A DNA stretch of 64,000 nt from an uncultured Chloroflexia bacterium (GCA_963707215.1 CAVPPB010000002.1:192001-256000); one strand, 5' to 3'; numbered from the stretch's first letter, positions 37,702-54,872 are shown. Program-made: numbers and translations. The notes: generated by a model not told the origin, from the sequence alone.

Positions 37702-37739
37702 TGGCGCGCCCGGAGGCGGTCGGGCGCGAAGGAACGACA
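37702..37739 (-). repeat. att-like site: tRNA 3' end (15/16) plus palindromic arm
   Basis: TGGCGCGCCCG-gaggcggt-CGGGCGCGAAGGAACGACA. Confidence 0.8.
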
Positions 37740-37956
37740 CGTGCTGGTCGACCGCGCGGGAAGTCGGGACGTTGTCCTCTAGCACGCGCCTTGCGAGAGC
37801 AGGACCGTGGGCCCCGACAGCCCATGGCCGGCCCGCCATCCGGGCGCGCGACCACGGGCTCCTGTGAGTGGAGGACGCGGCGGAGCAGATCGTATACGAC
37901 ACCGGATCGACGGTGGTCAGCCCCCGGCCACCGGGATGGAAGCACCTGGAGGGCGC

Positions 37957-40900
37957 ATGTCACCGATGAGGATCAAGCAAGTGATGGCGGCCATCGTCAT
38001 GGCCGCGCTGGTGGCGATGGCCGTACCCATCGGAGCGGCAGCCACGCCCGCCGACGACGTCGTCGAGGTCACGCTGCTGCACACCAACGACTTCCATGGA
38101 CGACTCGAGGCGGACAGCTCCGGTCGTGGAGGATCGGCGAACATCGCCGGGGTCGTCGAGAGCATCAGAGCCGACGTCGGCGAGGACAACGTCGCCCTGC
38201 TGGACGCCGGGGACGTGTACTTCGCGGCGCCCGCCATCTCTCAGCTCCTGATGGGCGAGAGCACCATCGACGTCTACAACCTGATGGGCTACGACGTCGC
38301 CACCTTCGGCAACCACGAGTTCGACAAGGGTCAGGAGGAGCTCGCGACACGCGTCGCCCAGTCGCAGTTCCCGTGGCTGGGTGCGAACGTCGTGCTCGAA
38401 GGCACGGACTGGGACCTGCCCGAGTGGGCGGAGCCGTATGCGCTGCTCGAGGTCGGCGGGATCACGCTTGGCGTCCTCGGACTCGCCGGTGAGGAGACCC
38501 CCGAGGTCACCCTGCTCGGCACCACCGAGGGCCTGATCTTCAAGGACCTGACCGAGACGATCCTGCACTACTACGACACCGTGATGGCCGAGGCCGACGC
38601 GATGGTCGTGCTCGTCCACATGGGCACCGCCGACAGCGGCCCGTACCAGGGGCTCGAGTCGGTGGCCCAGGAGCTGATCGATGCCGGGAAGCCGGTCGAC
38701 CTCATGATCGGCGGCCACCAGCACCAGGCCCTGTTCGCTCCCGTCTACGTCGGTGACACGGCGATCGTTGCGGCCGGCTACTACGGGCGCTGGCTGGGCC
38801 AGGTGGACGTGTCGATCGACCCGTCGACCAAGGATCTGACCGTCAGCTCCTACAAGCTCCACGCCATCACCGAGTGGACCGGGAAGACGGCCGCCCTGAA
38901 GAGCGCGGTCGAGGGCTACTACGCGAGCGGCGCCATCGCCGACGAGGGCATCTTCGACAGCCTGATGGCGAAGCTCGACACTGCCACGGCGTCGATCGAG
39001 CGCGGCCAGACGAAAGCGGCCGCCAACAAGCTCAGCGCGTTCGTCAATCAGCTCGAGGCGCTCAGCGGGAAGAAGGTCGATGCCTCGGCGGCGGAGGCTC
39101 TGATCGCCAGTGCCGAGATGCTCGCGTTCACGCTGCCCGATCCGGCGGTAGCCGACCTCGTGGACTACTGGGCCGAGGTCGTTGCCCCGATCGTCAACGA
39201 GCCGGTCGGGTACACCAACGTGAGCCTGGTCCGCGACTACAACGACGAGTCGGTCATGGGTGACATCGTCAGCGACTCCATGCTGTGGTCGGCCGACTCG
39301 TACGACGACGGCGAGCTCAACGGCTCGGTCGATGTCGCCTTCACCAACCCGGGAGGGCTGCGGGCCGACATCACGATCCCCGACGGGGCCGCCCTGCCGT
39401 ACACCGTGACCTGGGGCGACACCTTCGACGTGCTGCCGTTCGGGAACACGCTGTACCTGATGGACCTCACCGGAGCCCAGATCCAGGAGATCCTCGACCA
39501 GGCGGCCACGCTCTACAAGGGCATGCTGCAGACGTCGGGGGCCGAGTGGTACTGGTACAACGACTGCGGCTGCGCCACGCCGACGGCGTGGGGCGCCTAC
39601 GGGGTGGAGATCGGCGACGAGCCGCTCGTCCGTGACGAGGTCTACCGGGTGGTGACCAACAACTTCCTGGCCGGTGGCCAGGACGGCTGGGTCACCTTCG
39701 CCGACGGCACCAACCGCTGGGACACGTACTACGACATGCAGCAGGGATTCGTGGAGTACATCGAGATGCTCGACGTGATCGACGCCGAGGACATCCCGAT
39801 GGATCGGATCGCCCGCCTCGATGACGTGGTGACGATGCTCCACACCAACGACACCCACGGCACGTGGCCGGAGACCTACTACTACGGCGCGCCCGAGGGC
39901 TTCGCGTTCCTGGCCGACACGATCGCGAAGGAGCGGGCCCACAACCCGAACGCTCTCCTGCTCGATGCCGGTGACACGTTCCAGGGCAATGCCTTCGCCC
40001 AGTACTTCCGCAACGCCGATCCCAACCCGATCGCCGGTGGGATGAACCTGCTCGGCTACGACGCGATGACGATCGGCAACCACGAGTTCAACTTCGGTCC
40101 GGCGACGTTCGCCACCATGCTCGGCCAGCTCGACGCGCCGCTCCTGGGGACGATCAACCTCGACGACGACGGGTCCTACGGCTTCATCAACGAGAACGTC
40201 CAGGACTACATCAACCTCGAGGTCGACGGCCTGAAGGTGACGGTCTTCGGGCTCACCAACCCGCGGGTCTACCGCTACGAGTTGCCCACGAACATCCCCG
40301 GCCTGACGTTCTACTCGGGCCTGGACACCGGGTTCGCGGCGGTACCCGAGATCCTGACGGCGGAGAGCCCGGACCTGCTGGTCGGCCTCACCCACATGGG
40401 GTACTCGCCCTACGGCGACGAGATCGACAGCGACGTGCTCCTGGCCGAGGGCGTCGCCGGGATCGACGTGATCATCGGCGGGCACAGCCACACCTTCCTG
40501 GACCAGGCCGTGATGGTGACGTCCGCCACCAACCCGGACGGGACGCTCGTCGCCCAGTCCGGGCGCTACGCCCTGAACCTGGGGCAGGTCAACGTCGGGT
40601 TCATCGACGGTGAGGTCGTGCTCCGCGAGGGCTATCTGATCCCGGCCACCGAGGCCCAGGTCGACCCCGAGATGGAGGCATACCTGCAGCCCTTCGTGGG
40701 TGAGCTCGACGCCTACACCAGCACCGAGATCGGCCAGACCACGGCCCCGATCGACGCGCTCCAGGCGTATACGCAGGAGACGAACGGCGCCAACCTGCAG
40801 GCCGACGCCGCCGTCTACGAGCTCGAGACCAACGGTGTCACGGTCGACCTCCACCTGTCCGGTGCGATGTCGAACCGCAAGGTCGCGGACGGCGCGACGC

Positions 40901-41412
40901 CGGCGAGCCCGGTGACGCTCACCGTCAACGACATGTACACGTTGATGCCGTACGAGAACTCGCTGCTCGTCATGGAGATGAACGGACCCGAGATCAAGCA
41001 GGTGCTCGAGCGCGGGTACCGCAACTACTGGTGGTACACGTACGACCCCGGCACGTGGGGCGGCTACTCCCACTACACGACCTGCATGCTGACGACCAAC
41101 GCGGGCGTGCAGATCACGTACGACGACGGTGGCCCGCTCATGCCGCCCGACGGCGACGATGTGGTGTCGTTGACGATCGACGGCGTGCCGGTGGACTTCA
41201 CCGACGCGAGCACGTACTACAACGTCTCGACGGTGAACTACCTGGCGGCCGGCTCGTGCAACTTCAACGACGCCGGTGTCACGGTCTGGCCGCTCGACCA
41301 GATCGTGGCCGACACGCAGTTCTACGTGCGTGACGCGGTGATCGACTACGTCAGCGCCCAGGTCGGGCCCATCAGTCCGGCGATCGAGGGCCGGTTGGTC
41401 TTCGTCCCGTGA
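37957..41412 (+). CDS. Secreted tandem 5'-nucleotidase (two metallophosphoesterase + C-terminal modules)
   Basis: Signal peptide; two sets of HTNDxHG, DAGD, GNHEF, HMG, GGHxH; NPGGLR. Confidence 0.92.
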   Translation: MSPMRIKQVMAAIVMAALVAMAVPIGAAATPADDVVEVTLLHTNDFHGRLEADSSGRGGSANIAGVVESIRADVGEDNVALLDAGDVYFAAPAISQLLMGESTIDVYNLMGYDVATFGNHEFDKGQEELATRVAQSQFPWLGANVVLEGTDWDLPEWAEPYALLEVGGITLGVLGLAGEETPEVTLLGTTEGLIFKDLTETILHYYDTVMAEADAMVVLVHMGTADSGPYQGLESVAQELIDAGKPVDLMIGGHQHQALFAPVYVGDTAIVAAGYYGRWLGQVDVSIDPSTKDLTVSSYKLHAITEWTGKTAALKSAVEGYYASGAIADEGIFDSLMAKLDTATASIERGQTKAAANKLSAFVNQLEALSGKKVDASAAEALIASAEMLAFTLPDPAVADLVDYWAEVVAPIVNEPVGYTNVSLVRDYNDESVMGDIVSDSMLWSADSYDDGELNGSVDVAFTNPGGLRADITIPDGAALPYTVTWGDTFDVLPFGNTLYLMDLTGAQIQEILDQAATLYKGMLQTSGAEWYWYNDCGCATPTAWGAYGVEIGDEPLVRDEVYRVVTNNFLAGGQDGWVTFADGTNRWDTYYDMQQGFVEYIEMLDVIDAEDIPMDRIARLDDVVTMLHTNDTHGTWPETYYYGAPEGFAFLADTIAKERAHNPNALLLDAGDTFQGNAFAQYFRNADPNPIAGGMNLLGYDAMTIGNHEFNFGPATFATMLGQLDAPLLGTINLDDDGSYGFINENVQDYINLEVDGLKVTVFGLTNPRVYRYELPTNIPGLTFYSGLDTGFAAVPEILTAESPDLLVGLTHMGYSPYGDEIDSDVLLAEGVAGIDVIIGGHSHTFLDQAVMVTSATNPDGTLVAQSGRYALNLGQVNVGFIDGEVVLREGYLIPATEAQVDPEMEAYLQPFVGELDAYTSTEIGQTTAPIDALQAYTQETNGANLQADAAVYELETNGVTVDLHLSGAMSNRKVADGATPASPVTLTVNDMYTLMPYENSLLVMEMNGPEIKQVLERGYRNYWWYTYDPGTWGGYSHYTTCMLTTNAGVQITYDDGGPLMPPDGDDVVSLTIDGVPVDFTDASTYYNVSTVNYLAAGSCNFNDAGVTVWPLDQIVADTQFYVRDAVIDYVSAQVGPISPAIEGRLVFVP

Positions 41413-41441
41413 CGTGACGTCGATCTGACGTCCTGAGAGGA

Positions 41442-41477
41442 CGACGAGGCCGGGGGTTCCCGCCCCCGGCCTCGTCG
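41442..41477 (+). terminator. 15-bp hairpin after nucleotidase
   Basis: CGACGAGGCCGGGGG-ttcccg-CCCCCGGCCTCGTCG; no U tract. Confidence 0.6.
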
Positions 41478-41573
41478 CGTCGACCGTAGCCAGGCCCACG
41501 CCTGCCGGTCGGCTCTTGCTCACGGCGGCACGTCCGACCAGCGTTGGAGCCTCATTCGACGTGGAGGCGAGCG

Positions 41574-43268
41574 ATGCCGGAGGCTGGTGCGAGGCTTCGC
41601 CGTCCGTCAGGACGACGGTCGGCGATCGGGGGCTGGCTGGTCCTGGTCGTGGCCGGGGCCCTCGCCGCGATACCGCTCCTGCCGGCGGGCGTCCCGTCCG
41701 ACCCCGCGATCGTTGACTTCTCGGCCAGCCGGGCGCAGCGGCATGTCGAGCAGCTCGCCATCGAGCCGCGACCGATGGGCAGTGCCGCGATCGAGCAGGC
41801 CCGCGAGGTGATCGTCGATGAGCTGCGGCAGATGGGCCTGGACCCGGAGCTCCAGGCGATTGAGGCCCCGGACTACTATGGGATCGAGGGCGGTCCGGTC
41901 GAGGTCGTGAACGTTATGGCCCGGATCCCGGGCAGCTCGTCCACTGGAGCGGTGGCACTCGTTGGCCACTACGACACGTTCCCAACGTCGCCCGGCGCGA
42001 ACGACGATGCGTCCGCGGTGGCAGTGGTCCTCGAGTCGGCCCGGGCGATCCTTGCCGGGCCCCAGCCACGCAACGACGTGGTCCTGCTGTTCACCGACGG
42101 CGAGGAACCGGCGCCGAGATTCGGCTCATCGGCCTTCGTGGCGGAGCACCCCTGGGCCGGTGACGTGGACTTCATCATCAACCTCGAGGCACTCGGTGGC
42201 GATGGGCCCGCGGCACTCACCGCCTTCGCGGGGCCGGCCAGCCTGGCCGTCGACGGCTATGCCAGGTCCGTCCCGCAGCCGATGGCGTTCTCCTACCTCA
42301 CCGCGACGACCGAGCTGATCGGCGGGTCGAACACCGACTTCGCCACGTTCCGAGACGCCGGCGTGGCCGGGGTCGAGCTGGTCTACCTGCACGGGTCCTC
42401 GATCTACCACACGATGGCCGACACGCCGGGCCGGGTGAGCATGAGCAGCCTCCAGCATCAGGGCGAGAGCACCCTGGCGGTCGCGCGCCACATGGCCGAC
42501 CTGGACCTGGGTCGCCTGCCTCGGGCCGAGTCGACGGTCTTTCTCACGATCGGTCGGTACGTCGTTCGCTATCCCGCGGCACTCACCCTCGGGGCCCTCC
42601 TGCTGGCGGGCATCGCGCTTGCCCTCGGGACGATGACGGCTGCCAGATCCGGGCCACGGATCAGCTGGCGTCGTGCCTCGCGGGGTCTGGCCGCGGTCGC
42701 CATCACGGTGGTCGTGACGACGATCGGTGCGGTGGTCGCCTGGTCCCTGGTGGCCGGAGCGAGGAAGGACATGGGGCTCGCCGAGAGCTACCTGTACCTG
42801 GCAGCCCTGGTGCTGGTCGCCTGGGCGGTGCACGCGGGGGTCGAGCGCCTCGTGGGAGCTCGATCGGATCCGTCGTCCACTGCGGTTGGTGTCGTGGCTG
42901 CCTGGTGCCTGGTGGGCGCGCCGATCGTGCTCACCATGCCCGAGATCGGCTATCTGTTCGCCTGGCCGGCGCTCGTCGGCGGAGCGGTGATCCTGCTGCC
43001 GCGATCAGGCGACCGGAGCGGGTGGCTCGACGTGGCAGGGTTTGCGCTCGTCGCCACGACCGTCCTCGTCCTTCTGGTCCCGGCCATCGACACCTTCTAC
43101 CAGTTGGCGCAGCCGCGGCCGGGCAACCTGGACTCGCAGGTCCTCTGGATCGTCGCCATCCCAGCGGCGCTCGTCGCGCTCGTCGTCGAGCTGCTGGCGG
43201 CGTTCTGGCCTCGGTCGTCGCCTGCTCGGCCTCACGCGGTCGCGGACCCGGTGGCTCCCCGAAGTTGA
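41574..43268 (+). CDS. M28 family metallopeptidase with C-terminal TM helices
   Basis: GHYDT, GANDD, FTDGEE, NLEA, TDF, YHT. Confidence 0.9.
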   Translation: MPEAGARLRRPSGRRSAIGGWLVLVVAGALAAIPLLPAGVPSDPAIVDFSASRAQRHVEQLAIEPRPMGSAAIEQAREVIVDELRQMGLDPELQAIEAPDYYGIEGGPVEVVNVMARIPGSSSTGAVALVGHYDTFPTSPGANDDASAVAVVLESARAILAGPQPRNDVVLLFTDGEEPAPRFGSSAFVAEHPWAGDVDFIINLEALGGDGPAALTAFAGPASLAVDGYARSVPQPMAFSYLTATTELIGGSNTDFATFRDAGVAGVELVYLHGSSIYHTMADTPGRVSMSSLQHQGESTLAVARHMADLDLGRLPRAESTVFLTIGRYVVRYPAALTLGALLLAGIALALGTMTAARSGPRISWRRASRGLAAVAITVVVTTIGAVVAWSLVAGARKDMGLAESYLYLAALVLVAWAVHAGVERLVGARSDPSSTAVGVVAAWCLVGAPIVLTMPEIGYLFAWPALVGGAVILLPRSGDRSGWLDVAGFALVATTVLVLLVPAIDTFYQLAQPRPGNLDSQVLWIVAIPAALVALVVELLAAFWPRSSPARPHAVADPVAPRS

Positions 43269-43293
43269 CCCGGCGGGCAGCCGGGAGGGGGCC

Positions 43294-43327
43294 TCGGGCG
43301 CCCTGAGAGGCTCGCGCGGGTGCGAAC
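43294..43327 (-). repeat. Degenerate att-like site
   Basis: GGGCGCCCTGAGAGGCTCGCGCGGGTGCGAAC matches the 53284 site at 21/32 ungapped; same upstream context as 37702. Confidence 0.45.
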
Positions 43328-43335
43328 GGGAGCGC

Positions 43336-44676
43336 TCAGGTGGAGGCGAGCGCGAAGACTCGCCAGGAGTCCGGGACCCCCTTGAGCTGCTGCTCACCAC
43401 GATCCTCGAACTCCAGCCCCGAACCGGCCACGAGATCCTTGACCGTCCTCGACACCAGCACCTCTCCTGGCTCCGCCAGGGCGGCGATGCGGGCACCGAT
43501 CGAGACGGCGATGCCGACCACCTTGCCGTCGCTGATCTCGCACTCGCCGGTGTGGAGTCCGGCTCGCACGTCGAGCCCGATCTCGCCGAGCGGGTCGCGG
43601 ATGGCCGCCGCGGCCTGGACGGCCCGGGCCGGTCCGTCGAACGCCGCGAAGAACCCATCGCCGGCGGTATCGAGCTCGCGGCCGTGGAACCTGGCGAGCG
43701 CACGCCGGACGATCGAATGGTGGCGCTCGAGCAGGTCGCGCCAGGCGGCGTCGCCGAGCCGCGCGGCCAGCTCGGTCGAGCCGACGATGTCGGTGAACAG
43801 GATCGTCGCGAGGACCCGTTCGGGGGCGGTTCGACCCTGAAGGCGCGAGAGGAACCGGGCGGTGGCGGCTATCGTCGCCTCGGCGGCCCGGTCGTCGACC
43901 CAGGTGTAGACACCCTGGAAGGCAGGCAGCTCCTGGAGCTCGGCTCCGCGGATCCGCTTGGCCGCGTAGTGGGCGGGCCCGGGCAGTGTCGACCGCGGGA
44001 AGATCAGCGTCGGCACGCGGACCGCGGCGAGGACGTCGGTGACGTCGAGGTCCATCTCCGCCCGGAACGCGGTCAGGGCAGCACCGGGACTCAGGCTGCG
44101 GCGCATGTGCCAGACGAACCAGTCGCGGAAGGCGTCGTCCTCGGCGACCTCCGGGGCCCACTCGCGAGCCAGTCGCTCGAGATAGGCGCGCTCACCCCAG
44201 CCGGCCCGGATCTCGGCCAGGCGCCGACGCCACTCGTCCGGCGTCGGAGCCCATGGGTAGTCGGGCGCACGGGTGCCCTTGATCCGTGGATCGATCAGGA
44301 CGAGGCCCAGGCAGCGATCGGGATACGTTGCCGCGAAGAGCAGGCTGAGACCGGTGCTGGTGCTGCCGCTCCACAGGACGGCCTGTTCGGATCCCACGGC
44401 ATCCATGACGGCCCGGACGTCGTCCATCGCCGTGTCGAGCGACTGTACCTCGCGGACCCGGTCGGACAGGCCGGTGCCGCGCTTGTCCAGCATCAGCACC
44501 CGACCGGACTCGGCAAGACCCTCGACGTGGCGAGCGAGGAGCGGCTGCTCCCAGGTCGAGAGGAGATCGCCGGCGATCCCGCGCACGAAGACGATGTCCG
44601 TCGGTCCCTGGCCCACGACCTGGTAGGCGATCGCCACATCGCCGCTCCGCGCGTAGGAGACGTCGGGCGGTTTCAC
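43336..44676 (-). CDS. Alpha/beta hydrolase + class III cyclase fusion (LipJ/Rv1900c-like)
   Basis: YARSGDVAIAYQV, DKRGTGLSD; LFTDIVGST, DTAGDG, GIAVSIGARI. Confidence 0.9.
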   Translation of the reverse strand: MKPPDVSYARSGDVAIAYQVVGQGPTDIVFVRGIAGDLLSTWEQPLLARHVEGLAESGRVLMLDKRGTGLSDRVREVQSLDTAMDDVRAVMDAVGSEQAVLWSGSTSTGLSLLFAATYPDRCLGLVLIDPRIKGTRAPDYPWAPTPDEWRRRLAEIRAGWGERAYLERLAREWAPEVAEDDAFRDWFVWHMRRSLSPGAALTAFRAEMDLDVTDVLAAVRVPTLIFPRSTLPGPAHYAAKRIRGAELQELPAFQGVYTWVDDRAAEATIAATARFLSRLQGRTAPERVLATILFTDIVGSTELAARLGDAAWRDLLERHHSIVRRALARFHGRELDTAGDGFFAAFDGPARAVQAAAAIRDPLGEIGLDVRAGLHTGECEISDGKVVGIAVSIGARIAALAEPGEVLVSRTVKDLVAGSGLEFEDRGEQQLKGVPDSWRVFALAST

Positions 44677-44823
44677 CGGCCGAGTGTGGCCTATCGAAGC
44701 GGCCGATGCCACTCGCACTTCCGAAGACCAGGTGTGGACGGCTCGGATGAGCGGGACGCCACGCCGACGGCCCTCGGCCCGTGTCCTGCGCGGACAGCTC
44801 GGGCGGCGCCGGGCCGACCCGAC

Positions 44824-46116
44824 TCAGATCGATTCGGACCGCGTCGGAAGCCGGCCCGCGCCTGAACCCTGCGGAGTCGCATCTGCTGGGGCCATGCACT
44901 CCACGTCCTCGATGCGCCTGACCCGGCGGACGGGCGAGAAGACCACCCAGAGCGGCGCACCGGCGATCCCGATCGCCCCGACCGCCAGCGCGGCTCGAAG
45001 GCCGAATGCCTCGCCGACGATGCCCCCGAGGAGCGCGCCGATGGGCATGACGCCGTAGCCGAGCGTGCGGTAGCTGGCGTTCATCCGCGCCAGAAGGCGG
45101 TCCGGGGTGACGGTCTGCCGGATGGTCATGACGTGGATGACCGTGATCGCGATGAACGCACCGGCCAGGGCGAGGATGAGGGCGATGACGCCTACCGCGA
45201 TGGGGGAGGAGCCATCGATGAGCGGGAGCGCGAGGTAGACGCTGCAGGCGACGATCATCGCGCCGGTGATCGTGGTCCCAAGACCGAATTGTTTCGCGAG
45301 CCGTCCGGCGACCATGGAACCGACCAGCGAACCGACGGCACCGACGACGAAGATCGACCCGACGACCGCGGGCGCGACGCCCAGCTCCCGGGTGAGGTAC
45401 AGGAGGAAGGCCGCGTTGAGGGCGGCGGCGAACAGGTTGAACGTGGCGGCCTCGAGCGCGAAGGCGCGGAGGATGGGATGGCCGAACGTGGTTCGCAGGC
45501 CCTCCCCGATCTCCGCCCGGAGGTCGGGGCGGGCCGGGGCCGCCCGCACGGGCTCCGGCTGCCGGATCGCGGCCAGGCTGCCCGCTGACGCCAGGTAGCT
45601 CACGGCGTCAGCGGCGAGGGCGACCGGCGCGCCGACGAGCGACACCAGGGCACCCGCCAGCCCCGGACCGGCCACTTCGGCGGCCGACGCGCTCGAGAAG
45701 AGCTGTGCGTTCGCGGTCGCGAGCCGGTCTCGGCCGACCAGCGACGGGACGTAGGCGAGGAAGGCCACCTCGAACAGCACCGCACCGCAACCGGCGGCGA
45801 ATGCCACGAAGGCCAGGAGTGGCAGCGACAGCACGTCCAGGGCGGTCGCAAGCGGGATCGAGCCGATCAGTCCCGCGCGGGCCAGGTTCGCGGCCAGCAT
45901 CACGGGCCGGCGCCGGACCCGGTCGATCCAGGCCCCAGCGAACAGGGTCAGGAACAGGAACGGGGCGTACTCCACGGCGGCGAGCAGCCCCATCTCGAAT
46001 GGTGAGGCGTGAAGGACGAGGATCGCCGCCAGCGGCAGGGCCAGCAGCGTGACCTGCGATCCGAACAGCGAGACTGTCTCGCCGAACCAGAGATTCCGGA
46101 ACGCCGCGCTGTTCAT
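44824..46116 (-). CDS. MFS transporter
   Basis: FRNLW.GETVSLFG, GAWIDRVRRR motif A, about 12 TM segments. Confidence 0.9.
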   Translation of the reverse strand: MNSAAFRNLWFGETVSLFGSQVTLLALPLAAILVLHASPFEMGLLAAVEYAPFLFLTLFAGAWIDRVRRRPVMLAANLARAGLIGSIPLATALDVLSLPLLAFVAFAAGCGAVLFEVAFLAYVPSLVGRDRLATANAQLFSSASAAEVAGPGLAGALVSLVGAPVALAADAVSYLASAGSLAAIRQPEPVRAAPARPDLRAEIGEGLRTTFGHPILRAFALEAATFNLFAAALNAAFLLYLTRELGVAPAVVGSIFVVGAVGSLVGSMVAGRLAKQFGLGTTITGAMIVACSVYLALPLIDGSSPIAVGVIALILALAGAFIAITVIHVMTIRQTVTPDRLLARMNASYRTLGYGVMPIGALLGGIVGEAFGLRAALAVGAIGIAGAPLWVVFSPVRRVRRIEDVECMAPADATPQGSGAGRLPTRSESI

Positions 46117-46118
46117 GG

Positions 46119-46202
46119 CTCACCAGCGTAAGGACGTTGATGGTTAGCGTCTTGGCAGTCTAGGTCCAGAGTGCTAACCTGTCAAACAGAATGGCTGGTT
46201 AT
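46119..46202. promoter_or_regulatory. Two TAACC-N17-GGTTA-type palindromes between MFS and CGNR genes
   Basis: 46119-46147 and 46174-46202 share arms and 17-nt spacing. Confidence 0.6.
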
Positions 46203-46817
46203 TCACGGAGGCTTCTCAGTCCGGCCGATCCGCCGGTCACGGCGTCATCACGGACCGCGAGACGAGACCCAGCGCCGGGCGGGCTCGAGCTCGTGCGTGC
46301 GTTCATCAACTCGTCCGACATCGAGAAGGGCACCGATGAGCTCGCCACCACCGCGGGGGTCGAGGCGTGGCTCCGCTCCCGAGGCCTTCCCGACCACGAG
46401 AGCGGGGTGACCGAGGACGAGCGGCGGCGGCTGGAGTCCTTCCGCGAAGCGCTCCGGGATCTCATCACGTGCCGTGAGCGAGGGGAGCCAGCCCCCGAGG
46501 CGCTCGAGCTCCTCGACGAAGCCTCCCGGTTGAGCCCCTTGACGGTCGCCTTCGATGCCAACGGCAGCCCGATGTTGCGCCCGGCTCGGGCAGGCGTCAT
46601 CGGGCTCGTCGGGCTGATCATGAGTGAGATCTCGGCCGCGTCGGTCGCCGGCACGTGGCCCCGCCTCAAGGTCTGCCGGAGCGACGCCTGCCGATGGGCG
46701 TTCTACGACGCGTCACGGAACCGCTCCGGGATCTGGTGCTCGATGGCAGTCTGCGGGAACCGGTCGAAGAGTCGGGCCCTGCGGGTCCGCCGTCGGGACG
46801 GACGCACCGGGGGGTGA
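46191..46817 (+). CDS. ABATE/CGNR zinc-finger regulator
   Basis: RLKVC...CRWAFYD.SRN...WCSMAVCGNR; start uncertain. Confidence 0.9.
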   Translation: MAGYSRRLLSPADPPVTASSRTARRDPAPGGLELVRAFINSSDIEKGTDELATTAGVEAWLRSRGLPDHESGVTEDERRRLESFREALRDLITCRERGEPAPEALELLDEASRLSPLTVAFDANGSPMLRPARAGVIGLVGLIMSEISAASVAGTWPRLKVCRSDACRWAFYDASRNRSGIWCSMAVCGNRSKSRALRVRRRDGRTGG

Positions 46818-46901
46818 CTGGCGAGGCGGCTCCTGAGGGGGCCCGCCCGATCGAGTCCTAGGCGGGGCAGGTGCCGACGAGGGGCACCGTCGCCCGGCTC
46901 G

Positions 46902-47609
46902 CTACTCGAACGCTGTGTTCGTGGCGCTCAGGAGGGCGCTCTGCAGCGTGGCCGGCGAAGCGTGCGCGGCGAGCAGAGCCTCCAGGTCCGCGAGCGCCCG
47001 GGAGACATCGTGCTCGGCCGTTTCGTGATGGCCTTCGACCGTGACGATGATCTCGGTCGTGTCTGCTCGGGCCGAACTCCGGGCGCTCTGCCGCCAGCAC
47101 CAGCGTCGGGCGCTCACGACATCCGCTTGATCCGCGAAGATCACCTCGCCGGGCTCCGGCTGCTCGGTCTGGCTCGAGCCGAGGTCGGCCCAGCGTTCGT
47201 CGCCGCGGGCGAACCGGACGGTCGTGCCGCCTGCGACCCCGCGCTGATCGAACACCGCGACCGGAAGCGCGTAGCGGATGCTCACCAGGTTGGCGAGATC
47301 GACCAGCGTCCCGATGGACGGCAGTCCGCCCTGCTTGGTCAGGCGCCGCAGGAGTGCCTCGGCCGCCGAGCGGTACTGCGTCGGATCGACACCGAATCCC
47401 CGGAACACCTTGCGCCAGGCTGCCAGCGTGGGCATCTCGCTGAGAGGCGTATCGGCGATCCGCGCGCGGACCGCGAGCGTCTCCTCGTCGAAGGCTGCGG
47501 CGAGTCGAGCCGGCGTCGGGCCGTTGTGGACGCCGGTGGCGTGGATGGCGCCTCCCACGATCGCCGGGAAGCGCTCCACGACGTCCGGGTCATAGCGGAG
47601 GCGTGCCAC
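46902..47609 (-). CDS. B3/B4 (PheRS-beta-like) tRNA-editing domain protein
   Basis: AWR..F..FG.DPTQYRSAAEALLRR, LVDLAN.VS, WCWRQS. Confidence 0.88.
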   Translation of the reverse strand: MARLRYDPDVVERFPAIVGGAIHATGVHNGPTPARLAAAFDEETLAVRARIADTPLSEMPTLAAWRKVFRGFGVDPTQYRSAAEALLRRLTKQGGLPSIGTLVDLANLVSIRYALPVAVFDQRGVAGGTTVRFARGDERWADLGSSQTEQPEPGEVIFADQADVVSARRWCWRQSARSSARADTTEIIVTVEGHHETAEHDVSRALADLEALLAAHASPATLQSALLSATNTAFE

Positions 47610-47768
47610 GAGACGAGTCTCCCACAGGGGCGCCTCCGGGATGGGGCCTCACCGTCCTGTCGTTGCCCCCTGGTCAGAGGGTTCCACGCGAGTCTTCCTG
47701 CGCTCGACGTCTTCCTTCGCGACGCCCACGAGCACGGCTCACGGGCAAGCCGTTCCCGGCCGATGCTC

Positions 47769-47807
47769 TGGCGCGCCCGGAGGGGCGCCGGGCCCGCAGA
47801 GGCAACA
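47769..47807 (-). repeat. att-like site: tRNA 3' end (16/16) plus arm
   Basis: TGGCGCGCCCG-gaggggcgc-CGGGCCCGCAGAGGCAACA. Confidence 0.85.
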
Positions 47808-47992
47808 GGACCTGTGCCTCTGGTCGGGACGGGTCTTGGGGCGGAACCTGTTCGCATCGAGGCGGACGATCCGGGCTCACCGGCTCCGGGCCGGCCCTCG
47901 CGCACCGCCCGAGTTGCCCTCGGCGCGGCAGCGGGTCGCGGCCGACGCGGCTTGGCCAGCCTGGCAGTCCGTCCTCGATGGAGGAGGCTGCC

Positions 47993-48757
47993 GTGACGAC
48001 GACGGCGTTGGGGGCGAACACGGAGCGAGCAGATGGACCGGGGGTGTCGCCGGGGGGCGAGCCGGACGGCGCCGGGGGCGACGGCCCGGCTCGCGGGCTC
48101 GATGACCGCATCACAGTCGCACGACTCGATCCATCGAGCTATCGAGACGCCCTTGACGTTCTTGCCCTGAGCTGGACGGACGAGCCAGCGTTCAGCCACG
48201 TCCTGGGAGGCACTCCGCGTCGCCGGCTGCGGGTGCTCAGACCGTTCCTCTGGACCGGGTTCCGGAGCTATCCGGGCGCCATCGAGGTCCACGGGGCGAG
48301 ACTCGATGGCCGGCTGGTGGGCGTCGGCGTTCGGTACCCACCGGGGCGGTGGCCGGTCACCCGCCGTGAGGAGATACGCGGCTGGGTATGGGGGATCCTC
48401 GGGATGCTCCCCATGCTCGTCGCATTCCCGCAGGCACGTCGCCTCTTCGGCCCGCTGGGCGACCTCCAGGGTCGCCACCCGCGTGACACGCCCCACTGGT
48501 ACTTGTGGTTGATGGGGGTGCACCCGTCGTTCCGCCGCCGGGGTGTCGCGTCGGCGCTCGCGCGGTTCGTCACGGGCCAGGCCGACGCCGCTGGCGTCGG
48601 CTGCTACACGGAGACGCTCGGCGACGGGACGGAGGCCCTCTACCGAGGCTTCGGCTTCGAGGTCCGGGAGCGCTGGGAGATGATTCCCGGCGCGCCGATG
48701 GCCCGGACGATGTGGCGCGCGCCCCGGCGGCGCGAGCCCGTCTCGGACTCAGGCTGA
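47993..48757 (+). CDS. GNAT acetyltransferase
   Basis: HWYLWLMGVHP.FRRRGVA, YTET, LYRGFGF; GGAGG RBS before GTG. Confidence 0.88.
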   Translation: MTTTALGANTERADGPGVSPGGEPDGAGGDGPARGLDDRITVARLDPSSYRDALDVLALSWTDEPAFSHVLGGTPRRRLRVLRPFLWTGFRSYPGAIEVHGARLDGRLVGVGVRYPPGRWPVTRREEIRGWVWGILGMLPMLVAFPQARRLFGPLGDLQGRHPRDTPHWYLWLMGVHPSFRRRGVASALARFVTGQADAAGVGCYTETLGDGTEALYRGFGFEVRERWEMIPGAPMARTMWRAPRRREPVSDSG

Positions 48758-48855
48758 CGGCGTCGCACGCCGATCTCGTCGAGGCCGGAGCGGGGAAACA
48801 GCGAAACCTCGAACCCGCCGCTCCTCTCGCGGACCTGGTACGGACACGGGGCCAT

Positions 48856-48893
48856 TGGCGCGCCCGGAGGGCTGTGGACGCGCAGGACCAACA
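48856..48893 (-). repeat. att-like site: tRNA 3' end (16/16) plus arm
   Basis: TGGCGCGCCCG-gagggctg-TGGACGCGCAGGACCAACA. Confidence 0.85.
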
Positions 48894-48924
48894 AGCGCTG
48901 CTTGAGAACGCATGGCTCGGGCAG

Positions 48925-49115
48925 GCGTGACAATCCAGGCGCGCCACGTTCCCGTCGTAAAGCTCGCCGAGGAGCACCAAGCGCTCGGGGTCGGTCCCGT
49001 GGTCGGCAGCGTGTGCCACCGCGTACGACACGCGCGGCGAGGGCACCGTTCCGCTCGGCGACGAGCAGCCCTCGAGCACGAGCGCCGCGACGCACAGCGG
49101 CATGACCGGGTTCAT
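48925..49115 (-). pseudogene. Possible esterase lipoprotein remnant
   Basis: Lipobox-like LEGC, then AHAADHGTDPERLVLLGELYDGNVA resembling a decayed DP.R..L.GxSxGG. Confidence 0.4.
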
Positions 49116-49198
49116 CGGCGCCGACGCCGCCGTGGGGTCGGGTCATCCGGATGACGATCCCGGGACTTCCGGCCCTGCCGCATGCCACACGATATTCA

Positions 49199-49210
49199 GT
49201 AATACATTAC
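49199..49210. promoter_or_regulatory. MarR-type operator palindrome
   Basis: GTAAT-ac-ATTAC directly before ATG 49213. Confidence 0.55.
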
Positions 49211-49212
49211 GC

Positions 49213-49710
49213 ATGCAGCACGAGACAACGGACCCATCGCCCGATCCGCGCCCCGTCGCCTTCGGCACCGTCTTCATCGTCGCGCACCACCTCGACCTGC
49301 TCGGCGATGTCGCCCTGGCCCCGCTCGGGCTCACGACCAAGCAGTGGCTCCTGCTCGCCGTCATCGAGCGGGCCTTCGCGGGGCACCACCCGACGCTGAG
49401 CGAGGCGGCGGCCGCGTATGGGAGCTCCCGCCAGAATGTCAAGGCGATGGCGCGGGCCCTCGAGGCCGCGGGCTACCTGCGGCTCGTGCCCGACGCGGTC
49501 GACGGCAGGGCCACCCGGCTCGAGCCGACCGCCCGCCTCGAGGTGTTCGCGACACCGGAGTGGAAGGCCCGCGAGGCGGCGTTCTTCGAGTTCGCCTTCG
49601 GTGGCCTCCCCGCGGAGGACGTGGCCAGCCTCGCCGACCTCCTGCAGCGCTGGCTCGCCGCGGTGGCCGCCATGCCGAACGTTGCCACGCGAGTGAAGGG
49701 AGCGAAATGA
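49213..49710 (+). CDS. MarR-family regulator
   Basis: GLTTKQWLLL, SSRQNVK...LE..GY, D..DGRA. Confidence 0.88.
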   Translation: MQHETTDPSPDPRPVAFGTVFIVAHHLDLLGDVALAPLGLTTKQWLLLAVIERAFAGHHPTLSEAAAAYGSSRQNVKAMARALEAAGYLRLVPDAVDGRATRLEPTARLEVFATPEWKAREAAFFEFAFGGLPAEDVASLADLLQRWLAAVAAMPNVATRVKGAK

Positions 49711-50114
49711 TCGTCCGACTGCTGGCGGCCGCCCTGCTGGCGGCTCACGGCCTCATCCACCTGATTGGGTTCCTCGTGCCCTGGCAGATCGCCCAGGTGG
49801 AGGGCTTCGCGTACCGGACGACGGCACTCGGCGGGAGCGTGGAGCTCGGCACGATCGGAGCGCAGCTCGTCGGCCTCGCCTGGCTCGCGATCGCGGTCGG
49901 CTTCGTCGTCGCCGCGGTCGGTGTCTGGCGCCGGTCTGCGTGGGCGCTCGGGCTGACCGGCGCGCTCGCGATCGCGTCCCTCCTCGTCTGCGTCCTCGGA
50001 CTGCCCGAGACGGTGGCCGGGATCGTCGTGAACGTGGCGATCCTCGCGGCTGCGGCCTGGCTGGCGCTATTCCGGGGGCGCGTGACTGCCCCGGCGACCG
50101 GCGGAGGGCGGTGA
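49707..50114 (+). CDS. Membrane protein (about 4 TM)
   Basis: HGLIHLIGF motif; ATGA-coupled to MarR. Confidence 0.75.
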   Translation: MIVRLLAAALLAAHGLIHLIGFLVPWQIAQVEGFAYRTTALGGSVELGTIGAQLVGLAWLAIAVGFVVAAVGVWRRSAWALGLTGALAIASLLVCVLGLPETVAGIVVNVAILAAAAWLALFRGRVTAPATGGGR

Positions 50115-50908
50115 TGGCACGACCCGTCTCGAAGGCCCGATTCGGGGAGCTCGTCGAGGCCGAGTTCGCGGCCCAGCCGCTCACGCCGTCATCGACGCTC
50201 GCCGAGGAGGACCTGGCGCCCCTGCCCGCTCCCGTCCAGCGCTACGTCCGCGCCTCCGGTGCCGTCGGCCGGCCGCGGCCGCGCAACGTCCGGATCGAGT
50301 TCGATGCCGTCATGCGGCGCAAGCCGGGCGATCAGGGGATGGCCGCGACGTCCGTCCAGTACAACTTCTTCGATCGGCCGGCGCGGCTCTTCTTCATGAC
50401 GGCCCGGATGCACGCGCTGCCGGTGCAGGCCCTCCACGTCTACCGGCTCGAGGAGGCCACCTTCACTGTTCGCGTCGCCTCCCTGGTGAACATGGTCGAC
50501 CAGCATGGCCCGGAGATCAGCCGGGCCGAGACGGTGACCGTCCTCAACGACCTCTGCGTGTTCGCGCCGGGCGCGCTCGTCGACCCCCGGCTCAGCTGGC
50601 AGCCGATCGACGACCGGAGCGCCGCCGTGACGTTCACGAACGGCCCGCACCGTGTCTCGGCAACGCTCCTCTTCGGCGAACACGGCGAGCTGGTCGACTT
50701 CTGGTCGGACGATCGGCCCGACAGCAGCAGTGGCCGCTTCGTGCCGATGCGCTGGAGCACGCCCGTCGGCGATCATCGCGAGGTCGGCGGCCTCCGCCTG
50801 CCGACGCGGGGCAGCACCATCTACGCCCGTCCGGATGGCCCGTTCACCTACGGCGAGTTCACGCTGCGCTCGCTCGCCTGCGATGTCCCCGGACCGCACG
50901 GCGGGTAG
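50114..50908 (+). CDS. DUF6544-like protein
   Basis: DL.PLP.PVQRY, QYNF...P.R.F, ETVTVLND, WSTP. Confidence 0.75.
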   Translation: MARPVSKARFGELVEAEFAAQPLTPSSTLAEEDLAPLPAPVQRYVRASGAVGRPRPRNVRIEFDAVMRRKPGDQGMAATSVQYNFFDRPARLFFMTARMHALPVQALHVYRLEEATFTVRVASLVNMVDQHGPEISRAETVTVLNDLCVFAPGALVDPRLSWQPIDDRSAAVTFTNGPHRVSATLLFGEHGELVDFWSDDRPDSSSGRFVPMRWSTPVGDHREVGGLRLPTRGSTIYARPDGPFTYGEFTLRSLACDVPGPHGG

Positions 50909-50952
50909 CCACGCCGCGCATGCTCTCCCGGACACACCTCACGGGGGACCCA

Positions 50953-51399
50953 GTGGACATCCTCTCGGCCGCGATCATCATCTTCGCCGTCATCGAGACG
51001 CTCAACGTCGGCATCCTCTACTTCCGTCCCGGCACGCGCGTGGGCAACGGGATGGGCGTGTTCAACGCCTATCGGACGTCGGAAGCCGACCCGGAGACGC
51101 GCGAGCTCGTCCGCTACCTGGTCAACTGGGTGGCCGGCACCAAGCTCATCTTCGTGGGCCTGCTCGCCGTGATCGTCCTCACGGGCAGCCAGACGACGAA
51201 GGCGTTCGCGGTCATGGCCCTGATCCTCTCGATCCTCTCGTTCTTCTGGCGCCTGTTCCCGGGGATCGTTCGTCTCGACCGGGACGGTCAGATCACCCCG
51301 AGCGGGTACTCGAGGACGCTGGGGATCATGATCGCGTGCTTCGTCGGGGGATTGGCCGCAGCGTTGGTCGTGTCCCTCGCGTTCGGTTCCGGCGGCTGA
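50953..51399 (+). CDS. Hypothetical membrane protein
   Basis: Hydrophobic helices, YLVNWVAGTKLIF, strong GC3 bias. Confidence 0.7.
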   Translation: MDILSAAIIIFAVIETLNVGILYFRPGTRVGNGMGVFNAYRTSEADPETRELVRYLVNWVAGTKLIFVGLLAVIVLTGSQTTKAFAVMALILSILSFFWRLFPGIVRLDRDGQITPSGYSRTLGIMIACFVGGLAAALVVSLAFGSGG

Positions 51400-51477
51400 C
51401 GAGGCCGCTGCCTCACGCAACCCGACGCGGAGCGCGGCCCTTCGGCCCGAGCTCGCGACCTTCGCCCCTCGCCGGGA

Positions 51478-51666
51478 GCGCAGCTCCCGTCAACGGCGAC
51501 AGGCTGTGCCTCGAGCACACGATGTTCAGCCAGACGGTGTTCGGGGACGCCGGCCCCCTGGGCTTCACGCTCGTGGGCGAGTGGGATGCTGTCGGCGGCA
51601 CGGGGCGGTTCGCCCATGCGACGGGACACGGCACGCTGGACGGGGCTGGTGACATCCCCGACGGAC
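51478..51666 (+). pseudogene. Internal fragment of a beta-barrel secreted-type protein
   Basis: NGDRL...GEW..VGGTGRFAHATG.G motif without a proper start. Confidence 0.45.
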
Positions 51667-51859
51667 GGGGACGTTGGGCCTTCCTGACGGCCTCGCGGCG
51701 TTCAACTTCACGGGCGGGACGCGTACGATGCATCGGACCGCTCGATGAAGCCGCAGGACCGAGGGCTCATCCCCCGGTCGCGTTACGCATCGTCAGGGGC
51801 CTCAATCGCGCTGTCGCTCTCGACCAGCTGCCCGCGATGGCACGGCTCCTGACCGCGTC

Positions 51860-51892
51860 CAGGTGTCGCCGATGTCGCGACGCAGGTGTCGC
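51860..51892. mobile_element. IS481-type subterminal repeat remnant
   Basis: 30/33 identical to 55596-55628. Confidence 0.75.
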
Positions 51893-51927
51893 TCGAGCCC
51901 CACGGCGTCAGGCGCGCAGGAGCAATA
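51893..51927 (-). repeat. Degenerate att-like site (right arm retained)
   Basis: GGCGCGCAGGAGCAATA matches the arm consensus GGCGCGCAGGAACAACA. Confidence 0.5.
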
Positions 51928-52173
51928 CGGGCGACGGATCGGGCCCGCCGGGGCGCGGCACGAGATGAACCGCCCCGGGTTCGTCGCGGACCGGGATCGC
52001 TGAGTCGCGGGTGCGCGACCGGAGGCCGTTCGCCCGCCCCGACCCATCCACGCACTCCGCCAGGGCGAAGGTCAGACGAGAGCAGCCGGGCGCCCTCCGG
52101 GCGTCGTGGCCTGGCGAGCAGGGGCGATGTCCCGAAGCTCGGTCCAGCGGAACACGTGAAGGTGAGTGCCACG

Positions 52174-52740
52174 GTGGGTGAGACGATCAAGATCCTGATC
52201 CTCGCGGGCAGTCTCCGCCGGGGCTCGTACAACCGGGCGCTGGCGCGTGCTGCTGCGCAGCTCGCACCGAGCGGCGTGGCCACCGCGACGTTCGATGGGC
52301 TCGGCGCCCTCCCGTTCTACGACGGGGACGTCGAGGACGAAGGTCTGCCCGCGAGCGTCAGTGCGCTGCGGCGGGCGATCGTGGAAGCCGACGCGCTGCT
52401 CCTCGCGACCCCCGAGTACAACGGCGCCACGAGTGGGGTCCTCAAGAACGCCCTCGACTGGGCCTCCCGCGGGCCCGACAGGATCCTCGCCCGAAAGCCC
52501 GTCGCGGTCATGGGCGCGTCGACCGGGGCGAGTGGTGCGAGAGGTGGGATCGAGTCGGTCGTGCGGATCATGACCCGCGTGCGTTCGGAGGTGGTCGGTC
52601 ACCTCGTCGCCGTTCCGTTCGCGGCGCAGGCGTTCGACGACGACCTGGCCCTGCGGGACCCGGAGATTCGCACCGAGGTCGCCGAGCTGGTCGCCGAGCT
52701 CGCCGGTCGCGCTCGCAGCAGCACCGCTCTCGCCGCCTGA
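52174..52740 (+). CDS. NADPH-dependent FMN reductase
   Basis: GSLRRGSYN, TPEYN, LKNALDW, KPV. Confidence 0.92.
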   Translation: MGETIKILILAGSLRRGSYNRALARAAAQLAPSGVATATFDGLGALPFYDGDVEDEGLPASVSALRRAIVEADALLLATPEYNGATSGVLKNALDWASRGPDRILARKPVAVMGASTGASGARGGIESVVRIMTRVRSEVVGHLVAVPFAAQAFDDDLALRDPEIRTEVAELVAELAGRARSSTALAA

Positions 52741-52792
52741 CGGGCTGCCTCGCAGCAGGGCCGCGGAGCGTGAGCGGTGCTACCGTCGCCGC

Positions 52793-53239
52793 ATGAGTGG
52801 CACCGCGGCGCCCCACCGGTCGTCGCTTCCTCGGACCATCGCACGGGTGGCCCTGGGGTTGGTCCTGCTGGTCGCCGGCATCGCCCATCTCACCTTCGGC
52901 CGCGAGGAGTTCACCGCGCAGGTCCCGGACTGGCTGCCGGTGGCCGACGACCTCGTCGTCGTCGGGTCGGGTGTCGTCGAGCTCGCACTCGGCGCGTCCC
53001 TCATCGCCCTGCCGCGCCATCGGGTCGCCGTGGGCTGGCTGTCGGCAGCGTTCCTCGTCGCGATCTTCCCGGGGAACATCGCCCAGTACGTGAACCAGGT
53101 CGACGCCTTCGGGCTCACCAGCGACGGGGCGCGAGCGGCCCGCCTGGTCCTCCAGCCGCTTCTCGTCCTGTGGGCTCTCTGGTCGACGGATGCATGGCGC
53201 GACCGGGCAATGCTCTGGAGAGTGGTTGGCGGCCCGTGA
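52793..53239 (+). CDS. DoxX-like membrane protein
   Basis: AGIAH, QVP.WLP, SGVVE, IFPGNI, RL..QP. Confidence 0.85.
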   Translation: MSGTAAPHRSSLPRTIARVALGLVLLVAGIAHLTFGREEFTAQVPDWLPVADDLVVVGSGVVELALGASLIALPRHRVAVGWLSAAFLVAIFPGNIAQYVNQVDAFGLTSDGARAARLVLQPLLVLWALWSTDAWRDRAMLWRVVGGP

Positions 53240-53265
53240 TAGGCGGAGGTGCCGGCCGGCGGCTT

Positions 53266-53282
53266 TGTCGCGACGCATGACA
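53266..53282. mobile_element. IS481-type terminus
   Basis: TGTCGCGACGCATGACA, 16/17 identical to 55632-55648, also 1 nt before the tRNA-end copy. Confidence 0.8.
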
Positions 53283-53283
53283 A

Positions 53284-53321
53284 TGGCGCGCCCGGAGGGC
53301 ATCGGGCACGCAGGAACAACA
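53284..53321 (-). repeat. att-like site: tRNA 3' end (16/16) plus arm
   Basis: TGGCGCGCCCG-gagggcat-CGGGCACGCAGGAACAACA. Confidence 0.88.
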
Positions 53322-53516
53322 ACGGCCACGCTCCTGTTCAACGATGGCCCCTGCTCCTCCCGAGTGGCCCGCTCTGATAGGGATAGACCCCAGATCGCTT
53401 GTCCGTCAGCCGCTCGGTTGATATTCGGGTCTGGACGGCCAGTGGCGACGGGTGGTTCAAGCGGTGGAACGGGACCCGCCCCAGGACCGCGAGATCGACC
53501 AGCCGGCCCGACGTCG

Positions 53517-53708
53517 CTAGCTGTCGTCCGAGCCCTGCTCCGATTGCCAGAATCCGAGGCCAAGGACGACGAAGACGACGCACAGGACGATGAACGCCGC
53601 GTTGGCCGCGATGGCCCCAGTGTCGCCAACGAATCCAGCGACTCCCGCGATCAGAAAGCACAGTGCGGCGATCAAGTACATCACCGCTGCTCTACGCCGA
53701 GCCTTCAA
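53517..53708 (-). CDS. Small two-TM membrane protein
   Basis: AAAGGAGG RBS before TTG; two hydrophobic helices; locally lower GC. Confidence 0.55.
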   Translation of the reverse strand: MKARRRAAVMYLIAALCFLIAGVAGFVGDTGAIAANAAFIVLCVVFVVLGLGFWQSEQGSDDS

Positions 53709-53801
53709 GCCAATTCCTCCTTTCGCAGTAGTTGTGCAGGTTGGGCGGTCATCTCCAGAGCTCGCCCCCAGGGCCCCACGACCACATGACCTCTGAACAC
53801 G

Positions 53802-53852: not shown

Positions 53853-53904
53853 GGGCGACGGCGTCGTGGACGGCGGCCCAGGCGACGATGCCGTGGGAAC
53901 TCGC

Positions 53905-54856: not shown

Positions 54857-54872
54857 GGTCGCACTCCTCAAG

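Follow-up and report, generated by a model that had tools for sequence, protein, structure and literature searches.

We analysed a 64,000-nucleotide (nt) stretch of DNA from an uncultured Chloroflexia bacterium (GCA_963707215.1, CAVPPB010000002.1:192001-256000; hereafter the window), in which palindromic repeats that copy the 3' end of a tRNA gene divide a run of cargo genes into units. The parent assembly comprises 3,257,968 bases and is 84.8% complete. ARAGORN finds one tRNA in the window, tRNA-Arg(TCG) at 55650-55726 on the minus strand (Rfam tRNA model, 71.6 bits), and this gene is single copy across the assembly. On the plus strand its 3' end appears as TGGCGCGCCCGGAGGG, composed of CCA, the discriminator, the 7-nt 3' strand of the acceptor stem and the 5-nt 3' strand of the T stem. 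The 15-mer TGGCGCGCCCGGAGG, the reverse complement of this tRNA 3' end (hereafter the core), has five exact plus-strand copies in the window, at 37702, 47769, 48856, 53284 and, in the tRNA itself, 55650. The features are listed below; the arm classes and the attachment (att) site terms are taken up in the following paragraphs.

34000-34015, plus strand: decayed distal copy of the core, with one mismatch (G12>C) and no recognizable right arm
34016-54849: cargo of the putative island, with no tyrosine or serine recombinase
37702-37739, plus strand: candidate junction site 1, a 15-nt core and a class-1 P'-type arm (CGGGCGCG..GGAACGACA), with C at position 16
47769-47807, plus strand: candidate junction site 2, a 16-nt core and a class-1-like arm with a 1-nt insertion, at the left edge of a GNAT cassette
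48856-48893, plus strand: candidate junction site 3, a 16-nt core and a class-1 arm (TGGACGCGCAGGACCAACA)
51890-51927, plus strand: decayed candidate junction site, with a recognizable right arm (CAGGCGCGCAGGAGCAATA, three mismatches to consensus) and an eroded core
53284-53321, plus strand: candidate junction site 4, a 16-nt core and the best class-1 arm (CGGGCACGCAGGAACAACA)
54850-55649, plus strand: fragment of an IS481-family transposase (open reading frame (ORF) of 247 amino acids (aa), rve_3 at E = 4e-19; transposase at 54850-55593), adjoining the core
55650-55726, minus strand: tRNA-Arg(TCG), whose 3' 16 nt (55650-55665) form the core and the probable attB-side junction

The window holds seven matches to the 15-mer with up to two mismatches, against a mean of 2.30 and a maximum of 6 in shuffled sequence; none of 100 shuffles reached seven. 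Across the assembly there are ten matches with at most one mismatch, six of which make up the array, and the other four are scattered, each with a single mismatch. Because only these four occur elsewhere on both strands of the assembly, and because the copy at 34000 lies on the same strand as the array and 3.7 kb from it, that copy is unlikely to have arisen by chance. A preliminary description of this DNA had proposed att-like palindromes at 37702, 48856 and 53284. These sites are real, and there are more of them than it gave: the copy at 47769 had been left off its list.

The core is widespread among relatives of the source bacterium. It is present in 124 of 201 sampled genomes of the family, for which a reversed-pattern control gave at most one match per strand per genome, and at least 22 genomes (G081 left out of the count) carry three or more copies on the same strand, with a maximum of nine. 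When bacteria and archaea were scanned for the exact pattern, with each species represented by a single genome, 49 loci came back, and every one bears the title of a Chloroflexota, uncultured Chloroflexia or Candidatus Limnocylindrales metagenome-assembled genome. From the arrays of related genomes we gathered 182 unique core sites and sorted them by the sequence to the right of the core: the tRNA body (43 sites), the window's own arm, termed class 1 (82), a class 2 arm that encodes a conserved peptide tail (18), a class 4 arm with a second tail type (9), the end of an insertion sequence (IS; 5), a tandem core (6) and other sequence (19). The right arms of the window, which the preliminary description had expected to recur in further examples, do so in the 82 class-1 sites. 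A free or autonomous form of this arm class was sought among viral contigs, which gave no match to the pattern of core plus class-1 arm, and among PLSDB plasmids, which gave none to the 61-nt site 53270-53330.

After every non-tRNA copy of the core stands a conserved arm, NNN-CGGGCGCGC-AGGAACAACA, in which a variable stretch of three to four bases is followed by a CGGGCGCG-like and then a (C)AGGAACAACA-like segment. The four window arms read CGGGCGCG-AAGGAACGACA, CGGGCCCG-CAGAGGCAACA (with a 1-nt insertion), TGGACGCG-CAGGACCAACA and CGGGCACG-CAGGAACAACA, and all match the consensus that had been drawn earlier. At 47769, 48856 and 53284 the match to the tRNA runs through nt 16, and at 37702 it runs through nt 15. 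We scored the complementarity of positions mirrored around trial centres, and found the dyad centre at 15.5, between G15 and G16, so that tRNA identity does end at the centre of the palindrome, as first suggested. At the four window sites, 36 of 80 positions are complementary around this centre, compared with 17-32 of 76-84 around others; at 141 non-tRNA sites from relatives the figure is 1380/2820 (0.49), compared with 0.24-0.38 elsewhere. The value rises to 0.645 for 21 sites with a GTTG left arm and is 0.43 for 41 tRNA sites, and the centre was 15.5 in every group tested. All arm classes have C34-A35-A36-C37 in common, and the mirror image of this CAAC, GTTG, occupies positions -6 to -3 in 25 of the 182 left arms, against a background of 0.26%. 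The result is an imperfect dyad of about 46 bp, in which an inner motif, GCGCGCCCG/CGGGCGCGC, has a 9-bp arm and an outer GTTG/CAAC pair lies 18.5-21.5 bp from the centre.

Large serine integrases of the phiC31, Bxb1 and A118/LI type act on att sites that are imperfect dyads of about 40-50 bp around a central dinucleotide, and recombination of these sites leaves hybrid junctions. The sites described here have the same architecture, with a dyad of that size around a central dinucleotide that is common to the set: G16 is found in 47 of 48 in-register sites, G15 being set by the search pattern, and in the window GG occupies the centre of four of the five exact copies, with GC at 37702. Because the dyad centre lies there, G15-G16 is the most likely crossover dinucleotide.

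In relatives, a recombinase is also linked to such sites, as the preliminary description had anticipated. Although the window and the assembly have no serine recombinase, intact large serine recombinases (LSRs) run through the same core into tRNA-Arg(TCG) in three of the 18 arrays examined (G154, G171 and G008). In G154 the LSR, an ORF of 526 aa, combines Resolvase (E = 2e-20), Recombinase and Zn-ribbon domains, as do the serine integrases named above; it stops 12 codons past the core, within the tRNA (...LARPEGFEPPTV-stop / ...CAGLARPEGFEPPTV-stop). The LSRs of G171 and G008 belong to a second clade, 26-30% identical to the G154 type, with the same three domains and the same placement. Remnants of LSRs adjoin cores in G006 (about 310 aa) and in G166 and L100 (44-48 aa). 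Homologues of the G154 type occur in 79 of the 201 genomes, and at 20 of 29 homologue loci that we fetched a convergent tRNA lies within -34 to +27 nt of the end of the LSR alignment (at one more, it lies at 221 nt). These tRNAs are Glu-TTC, Arg-CCT and Arg-TCG, and their frequency beside the homologues suggests an LSR family that targets tRNA 3' ends. In G171 (L083 12778-13083) an HTH_17 (excisionase-like) gene, whose product is a candidate directionality factor, and a 253-aa ORF of unknown function lie immediately upstream of the LSR, and the element also encodes an N6-adenine methylase of the Eco57I/MmeI type.

The far ends of these LSR elements, of 15.2 kb and 8.8 kb, carry class-2 arms. 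These share the reading frame of the LSR, xARPEG(F/S)E..PTIVIEGVEELVEALRAA-stop; in 13 of 14 the stop follows precisely 29 codons, and the summed entropy of the tail at codon positions 1, 2 and 3 is 10.4, 9.1 and 21.0 bits. As the far-end arm encodes a conserved, in-frame tail of 29 codons, attP would lie inside the recombinase gene, 29 codons before its stop, and integration is predicted to exchange the last 23 residues of the protein, so that FEPPT- replaces the tail in the integrated form. The earlier idea of an attP within a recombinase C terminus therefore holds for the relatives and their 29-codon tail; the arm class of the window keeps no common frame, and its stops fall at differing positions. 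Three hybrid arms (L096, L139 and L140) join a class-1 inner palindrome to class-2 tail sequence, and because they combine both, class 1 looks like a putative non-coding descendant of a class-2-type tail.

We consider it very probable that the repeats are junction (att) sites produced as LSRs repeatedly inserted elements into the 3' terminus of the sole tRNA-Arg(TCG) gene, and, on the same account, that the window between 33 and 55.6 kb is a decayed mobile island of about 22 kb, with at least six cargo cassettes and the palindromes as its seams. The left half-site would be the last 15-16 nt of the tRNA, constant because each incoming element must rebuild the tRNA, and the right half-site would be the P' half-site of the element lying to its right. 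In autonomous relatives the LSR gene would occupy the tRNA-proximal position, reading through the core, and would swap its C-terminal tail upon integration. In the window all recombinase genes would have been lost, an element of the IS481 family, itself duplicating these 15 nt, would have inserted and then decayed, and the older sites would have eroded, leaving a fossil island. Since both the window and the assembly are without a serine recombinase, we regard the window sites as relics. That class-1 arms were served by these LSRs, and the order of events in the island, are what we infer from this arrangement; a 2-bp crossover and recombination at these sites are predictions.

Several observations weigh against this account. 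None of 20 window ORFs scanned (chosen by GC content at third codon positions) is a site-specific recombinase, and the assembly, at 84.8% completeness, has no Resolvase-domain gene or other serine recombinase. No intact LSR was found on a class-1 arm, including in the 49 named loci, none longer than 8 kb, where the only LSR pieces are the remnants of 44-48 aa. Twelve of 22 array-bearing genomes have no match to the LSR query, a search with one query in incomplete genomes, and G043, G097 and G169 have no Resolvase domain. The site at 37702 carries GC rather than GG at the proposed crossover, which fits a dead site. Left arms that are neither GTTG nor an IS end make up 123 of the 182; they are purine-rich at -6 to -3, as are most tRNA-proximal sites, and simple serial integration of a fully palindromic attP does not predict left arms that mostly lack GTTG. 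A left half of attP that mimics attB, permitting repeated integration, may underlie these purine-rich arms. Some core copies may, moreover, be target duplications of IS481 elements and not products of a recombinase.

The chief competing possibility, which we rate well below repeated LSR integration followed by decay, is an active, integron-like system in which LSRs with genes at other loci act in trans to capture and excise short, recombinase-less cassettes that have only a palindromic site. If the left half of attP equals that of attB, attL resembles attP and attR resembles attB, and integration becomes repeatable and reversible. Such trans-mobilization would account for 82 class-1 arms against three intact LSRs, for cassettes too small to hold an LSR (31 of 92 below 1.65 kb, and a unit of 60 bp in G078), for the same cassettes turning up beside differing neighbours, and for the non-palindromic, purine-rich left arm found at 30 of 43 tRNA-proximal sites as at inner sites. 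Against it, neither a circular cassette form nor an excision junction was seen, half of the genomes with arrays show no LSR, gene orientation within cassettes is mixed, and in the window the decayed sites (34000 and about 51890) and the deleted IS and LSR remnants point to fossilization. Integrons proper are built from units of one to three genes between imperfect palindromes (attC), many of them without a recombinase of their own. The arrays here likewise consist of small units split by imperfect palindromes, many without a recombinase, but they differ in having a constant half-site, mixed gene orientation and no IntI tyrosine recombinase, attI or common promoter; the ORFs flanking the window array are not recombinases, and the matches to PF00589 (tyrosine recombinase) in the assembly all lie on another contig.

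The remaining explanations are much weaker. The palindromes might act as folded single strands, either as CCA-ended, acceptor-like minihelix RNA or as hairpins of single-stranded DNA, which we judge improbable. On the tRNA strand, the site at 37702 does read GCGCCCG-8 nt-CGGGCGC-G-CCA, the exact acceptor stem noted in the preliminary description, GCGCCCG being the tRNA's own 5' acceptor strand. That likeness is automatic, because the fixed half of the dyad is the acceptor 3' strand and the other half is thus the acceptor 5' strand. Of the U-G wobbles claimed for the tRNA strand, the one at 53284 is present, whereas at 48856 one U-G pair comes with a mismatch, A-C, in the pair that closes the loop. 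Hairpins form on either strand of every site (-14.6 to -19.1 kcal/mol, z-scores -0.7 to -4.1); among imperfect sites, folding favours the tRNA-sense strand in 46 and disfavours it in 21, and perfect arms fold better on the plus strand. In a set of 80 distinct class-1 30-mers we counted 60 changes of G>A and 26 of C>T, the latter including 20 at the loop-closing position; this excess of G>A is a mild form of the strand bias that had been looked for. It has another possible cause, however: 42 of the 60 affect positions 22 and 23, at which the tRNA itself has A (CGAAC), and they make the arm more attB-like; we do not count the excess as evidence of folding because these changes recreate tRNA bases. 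On the tRNA-sense strand C20>T is a mismatch, and 20 of the 80 carry it; the invariant left arm offers no covariation to test, and the symmetry reaches GTTG/CAAC, beyond any acceptor mimic. An E-value scan of 33000-57000 against Rfam found no known structured RNA family at the sites; it matched the true tRNA, plus one sub-threshold match at the same place. Less probable still is that every repeat is a target-site duplication of an IS481-family element. The core does flank a 1.3-kb IS on both sides in G174 and similarly in L124, terminal-repeat remnants adjoin the cores at 53284 and 55650, and cargo-free tandem or triple cores resemble footprints. Yet IS ends make up just 5 of the 182 right sides and 26 of the left ones, most cassettes lack IS ends at both edges, 1-10 kb of cargo separates the copies, and the arms of classes 1, 2 and 4, which have their symmetry about nt 15.5, do not correspond to IS ends. 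We give least credence of all to classical tyrosine-integrase att sites, even though direct repeats of a tRNA 3' end are the usual signature of tRNA-targeting islands in the cited part of the Islander paper (PMC4383910) and the tRNA 3' halves of 47-48 nt in some relatives' arrays fit crossovers in the anticodon loop. PF00589 genes are absent from and near the arrays of the six genomes checked (G000, G097, G154, G043, G116 and G169), all matches lying away from them; tRNA identity stops at the dyad centre; the 8-nt spacer varies at nt 17-19 and hence leaves no overlap of 6-8 bp; and LSR genes run through the site. The 47-48-nt halves themselves, broken off in the anticodon loop, extend the core at L049 5837, L084 4176 and 9412, and L086 8133, and mark a different class of integrase, probably tyrosine, acting on the same tRNA.

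Repeated LSR integration, the reading we prefer, can be set beside islands described earlier. In the cited part of Ghinet et al. 2011 (PMC3218068), integration of serine recombinases into tRNA genes is called rare, the examples being Mycobacterium AICEs in tRNA-Leu and phage phiRSM in tRNA-Ser. The present arrays share with these a serine recombinase that integrates at a tRNA gene; compared with what is described there, they differ in lying in another phylum, in reaching nine copies, in having one family on Glu-TTC, Arg-CCT and Arg-TCG, and in having no identified conjugation or replication module. The same part of the Islander paper treats serine integrases as not known to target tDNA and counts tandems of three or more in 4 of 3919 islands. 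Tycheposons of Prochlorococcus, according to the portion of the preprint cited (bioRxiv 10.1101/2020.12.28.424599), are tRNA-side islands formed by successive integrations, with tyrosine recombinases in 910 of 937 elements. As far as those two sources describe them, such islands resemble ours in the tRNA gene with displaced direct 3' fragments, in older elements being pushed outward and in degenerate elements and cargo that remain; theirs overwhelmingly use tyrosine integrases, whereas ours is linked to LSRs and its displaced fragment measures just 15-16 nt. The window does show a tRNA gene and a cognate direct 3' fragment flanking foreign DNA, as in the Islander definition of an island, but not the tyrosine-family integrase gene that this definition places inside each island: PF00589 is absent from its contig. 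Literature searches for recombinases of Limnocylindr- taxa, and for tRNA genomic islands with a serine recombinase in Microbacteriaceae, found none in the main texts covered.

Relative to phiC31, Bxb1 and A118/LI, the system differs in targeting the 3' end of a tRNA gene, with a left half-site that copies the tRNA, in placing attP in the 3' coding region of the recombinase so that a 23-residue tail would be swapped, and in forming arrays of junctions. Integration into tRNA genes is usually credited to tyrosine integrases, and here an LSR family of uncultured Chloroflexota appears to be specialized on tRNA 3' ends and to build arrays of up to nine junctions. It would supply integrase engineering with natural attP/attB pairs whose dyad is defined, would offer a natural example of a recombinase whose C terminus changes upon integration, and could explain how flexible gene islands grow in such soil and sediment bacteria. 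More speculatively, and in our view doubtful, the arrays may represent a lineage-wide gene-cassette system run by LSRs that target tRNA 3' ends and carry attP in their own C-terminal coding region. Were this so, abundant recombinase-less cassettes of 0.3-3 kb with only a palindrome of about 46 bp would be taken up and reshuffled in trans, every integration would restore a usable attB because attP and attB have their left half in common, and the tail swap could be a built-in directionality switch.

The cargo of the window comprises an EamA transporter, a TetR regulator, a 1201-aa 5'-nucleotidase/metallophosphoesterase, an M28 peptidase, a hydrolase-cyclase, an MFS transporter and a CGNR regulator, together with a B3_4 protein, GNAT, MarR, DUF6544, FMN reductase, DoxX and HTH_34 genes, in mixed orientation within the cassettes. 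The 1201-aa ORF (37807-41412) has PGA_cap, FIMAH, 5'-nucleotidase C-terminal and metallophosphoesterase domains and lies in the lowest-GC stretch of the island (0.65-0.68). Across the arrays we defined 92 unique cassettes of 0.3-10.4 kb, some of which recur in other genera. The GNAT cassette of the window (47769-48856, 1.09 kb) has a copy that is 81-82% identical and likewise started by a core in G078, which is another genus, and the DoxX gene is 90% identical to a gene that ends a cassette in G154. A cassette of 1.48 kb occurs at four loci with three different downstream neighbours: another cassette, an IS, or the tRNA directly. The hydrolase-cyclase gene (43336-44718) is 79% identical to a single-gene, site-bounded cassette adjoining the tRNA in G166 (L087 8975-10598), and as it stands alone there, the 10-kb unit of the window would be several cassettes fused. 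By eye, CCGGGAGGGGGCCTCGGGCGCCCTGAGAGG at 43270-43310, beside the cyclase gene, resembles another eroded site. The decayed site at 51890-51927 precedes the FMN-reductase/DoxX pair and divides the 48856-53284 unit into at least two cassettes. G078:C2 (L044 4362-4302) holds an 'empty cassette', with cores 60 nt apart and, between them, a class-1 right arm and a GTTGCTC left arm.

The left edge of the island is not fixed, as no recognizable site lies between 33001 and 34000 in the window. The hydrolase at 31592-33001 has a counterpart, at 70.6% identity, that adjoins the first core in G085 (L109/L032). A 95-aa ORF (MAVKVIVELKAEPG...) at 33043-33330 shows 91% DNA identity to an ORF left of the first site in G086 (L051 3903-4206), and a 3' fragment of the same ORF lies directly behind a core in G078 (L044 3204-3099).

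At the tRNA end, the transposase fragment shares 78% identity across 227 aa with the transposase of the 1.3-kb IS in G174, an intact protein of 400 aa that has rve, rve_3, HTH and LZ_Tnp_IS481 domains; the window ORF retains rve_3, and the fragment belongs with the IS481 family. Elements of the IS481 family have a DDE transposase with rve/rve_3 and a leucine zipper, terminal inverted repeats, TGT...ACA ends and a length of about 1.3 kb (ISfinder). The intact relative conforms to the family in its ends and length, but elements of this type sit repeatedly, in several genomes, at exactly this core, between two 15-nt copies. In the window, right-end terminal repeats of IS481 type stand at 55608-55625 and 55631-55648, and a terminal-repeat remnant lies at 53265-53282, left of site 53284; the IS copy is truncated, since it has right-end repeats and no left end. 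The segment 55560-55649, directly left of the tRNA core, contains two to three tandem end motifs of this type (ATGTCGCGACTCATG...). Double or triple head-to-tail cores of 15-17 nt without cargo occur at L124 4782-4752, L051 9024-9039, L084 3240-3255 and L052 5008-4991 and may be footprints of IS481 excision.

No RNA run was listed among the sequencing runs that share sequence with the window, and the best DNA runs contained at most 0.16 of its sampled words. In four sediment runs, contigs match 53293-54931 with 0-12 differing letters (at most about 1.2%), and they have loose ends exactly at 53284 (four contigs, X1) and at 55648-55661 (all four runs). These ends hint at differing left neighbours of the core in those samples, the contigs being short and the communities mixed; joints in the same contigs were disregarded because their sides are short (20-32 nt).

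Elsewhere in the assembly, the 3' 16 nt of tRNA-Gly(CCC), of tRNA-Pro(CGG) and of tRNA-Arg(CCG) each recur exactly, once more, at a distance of 4-12 kb downstream (C1 717584-722409, C3 1268222-1279790 and C3 1647212-1651525), and these copies probably mark further small islands.

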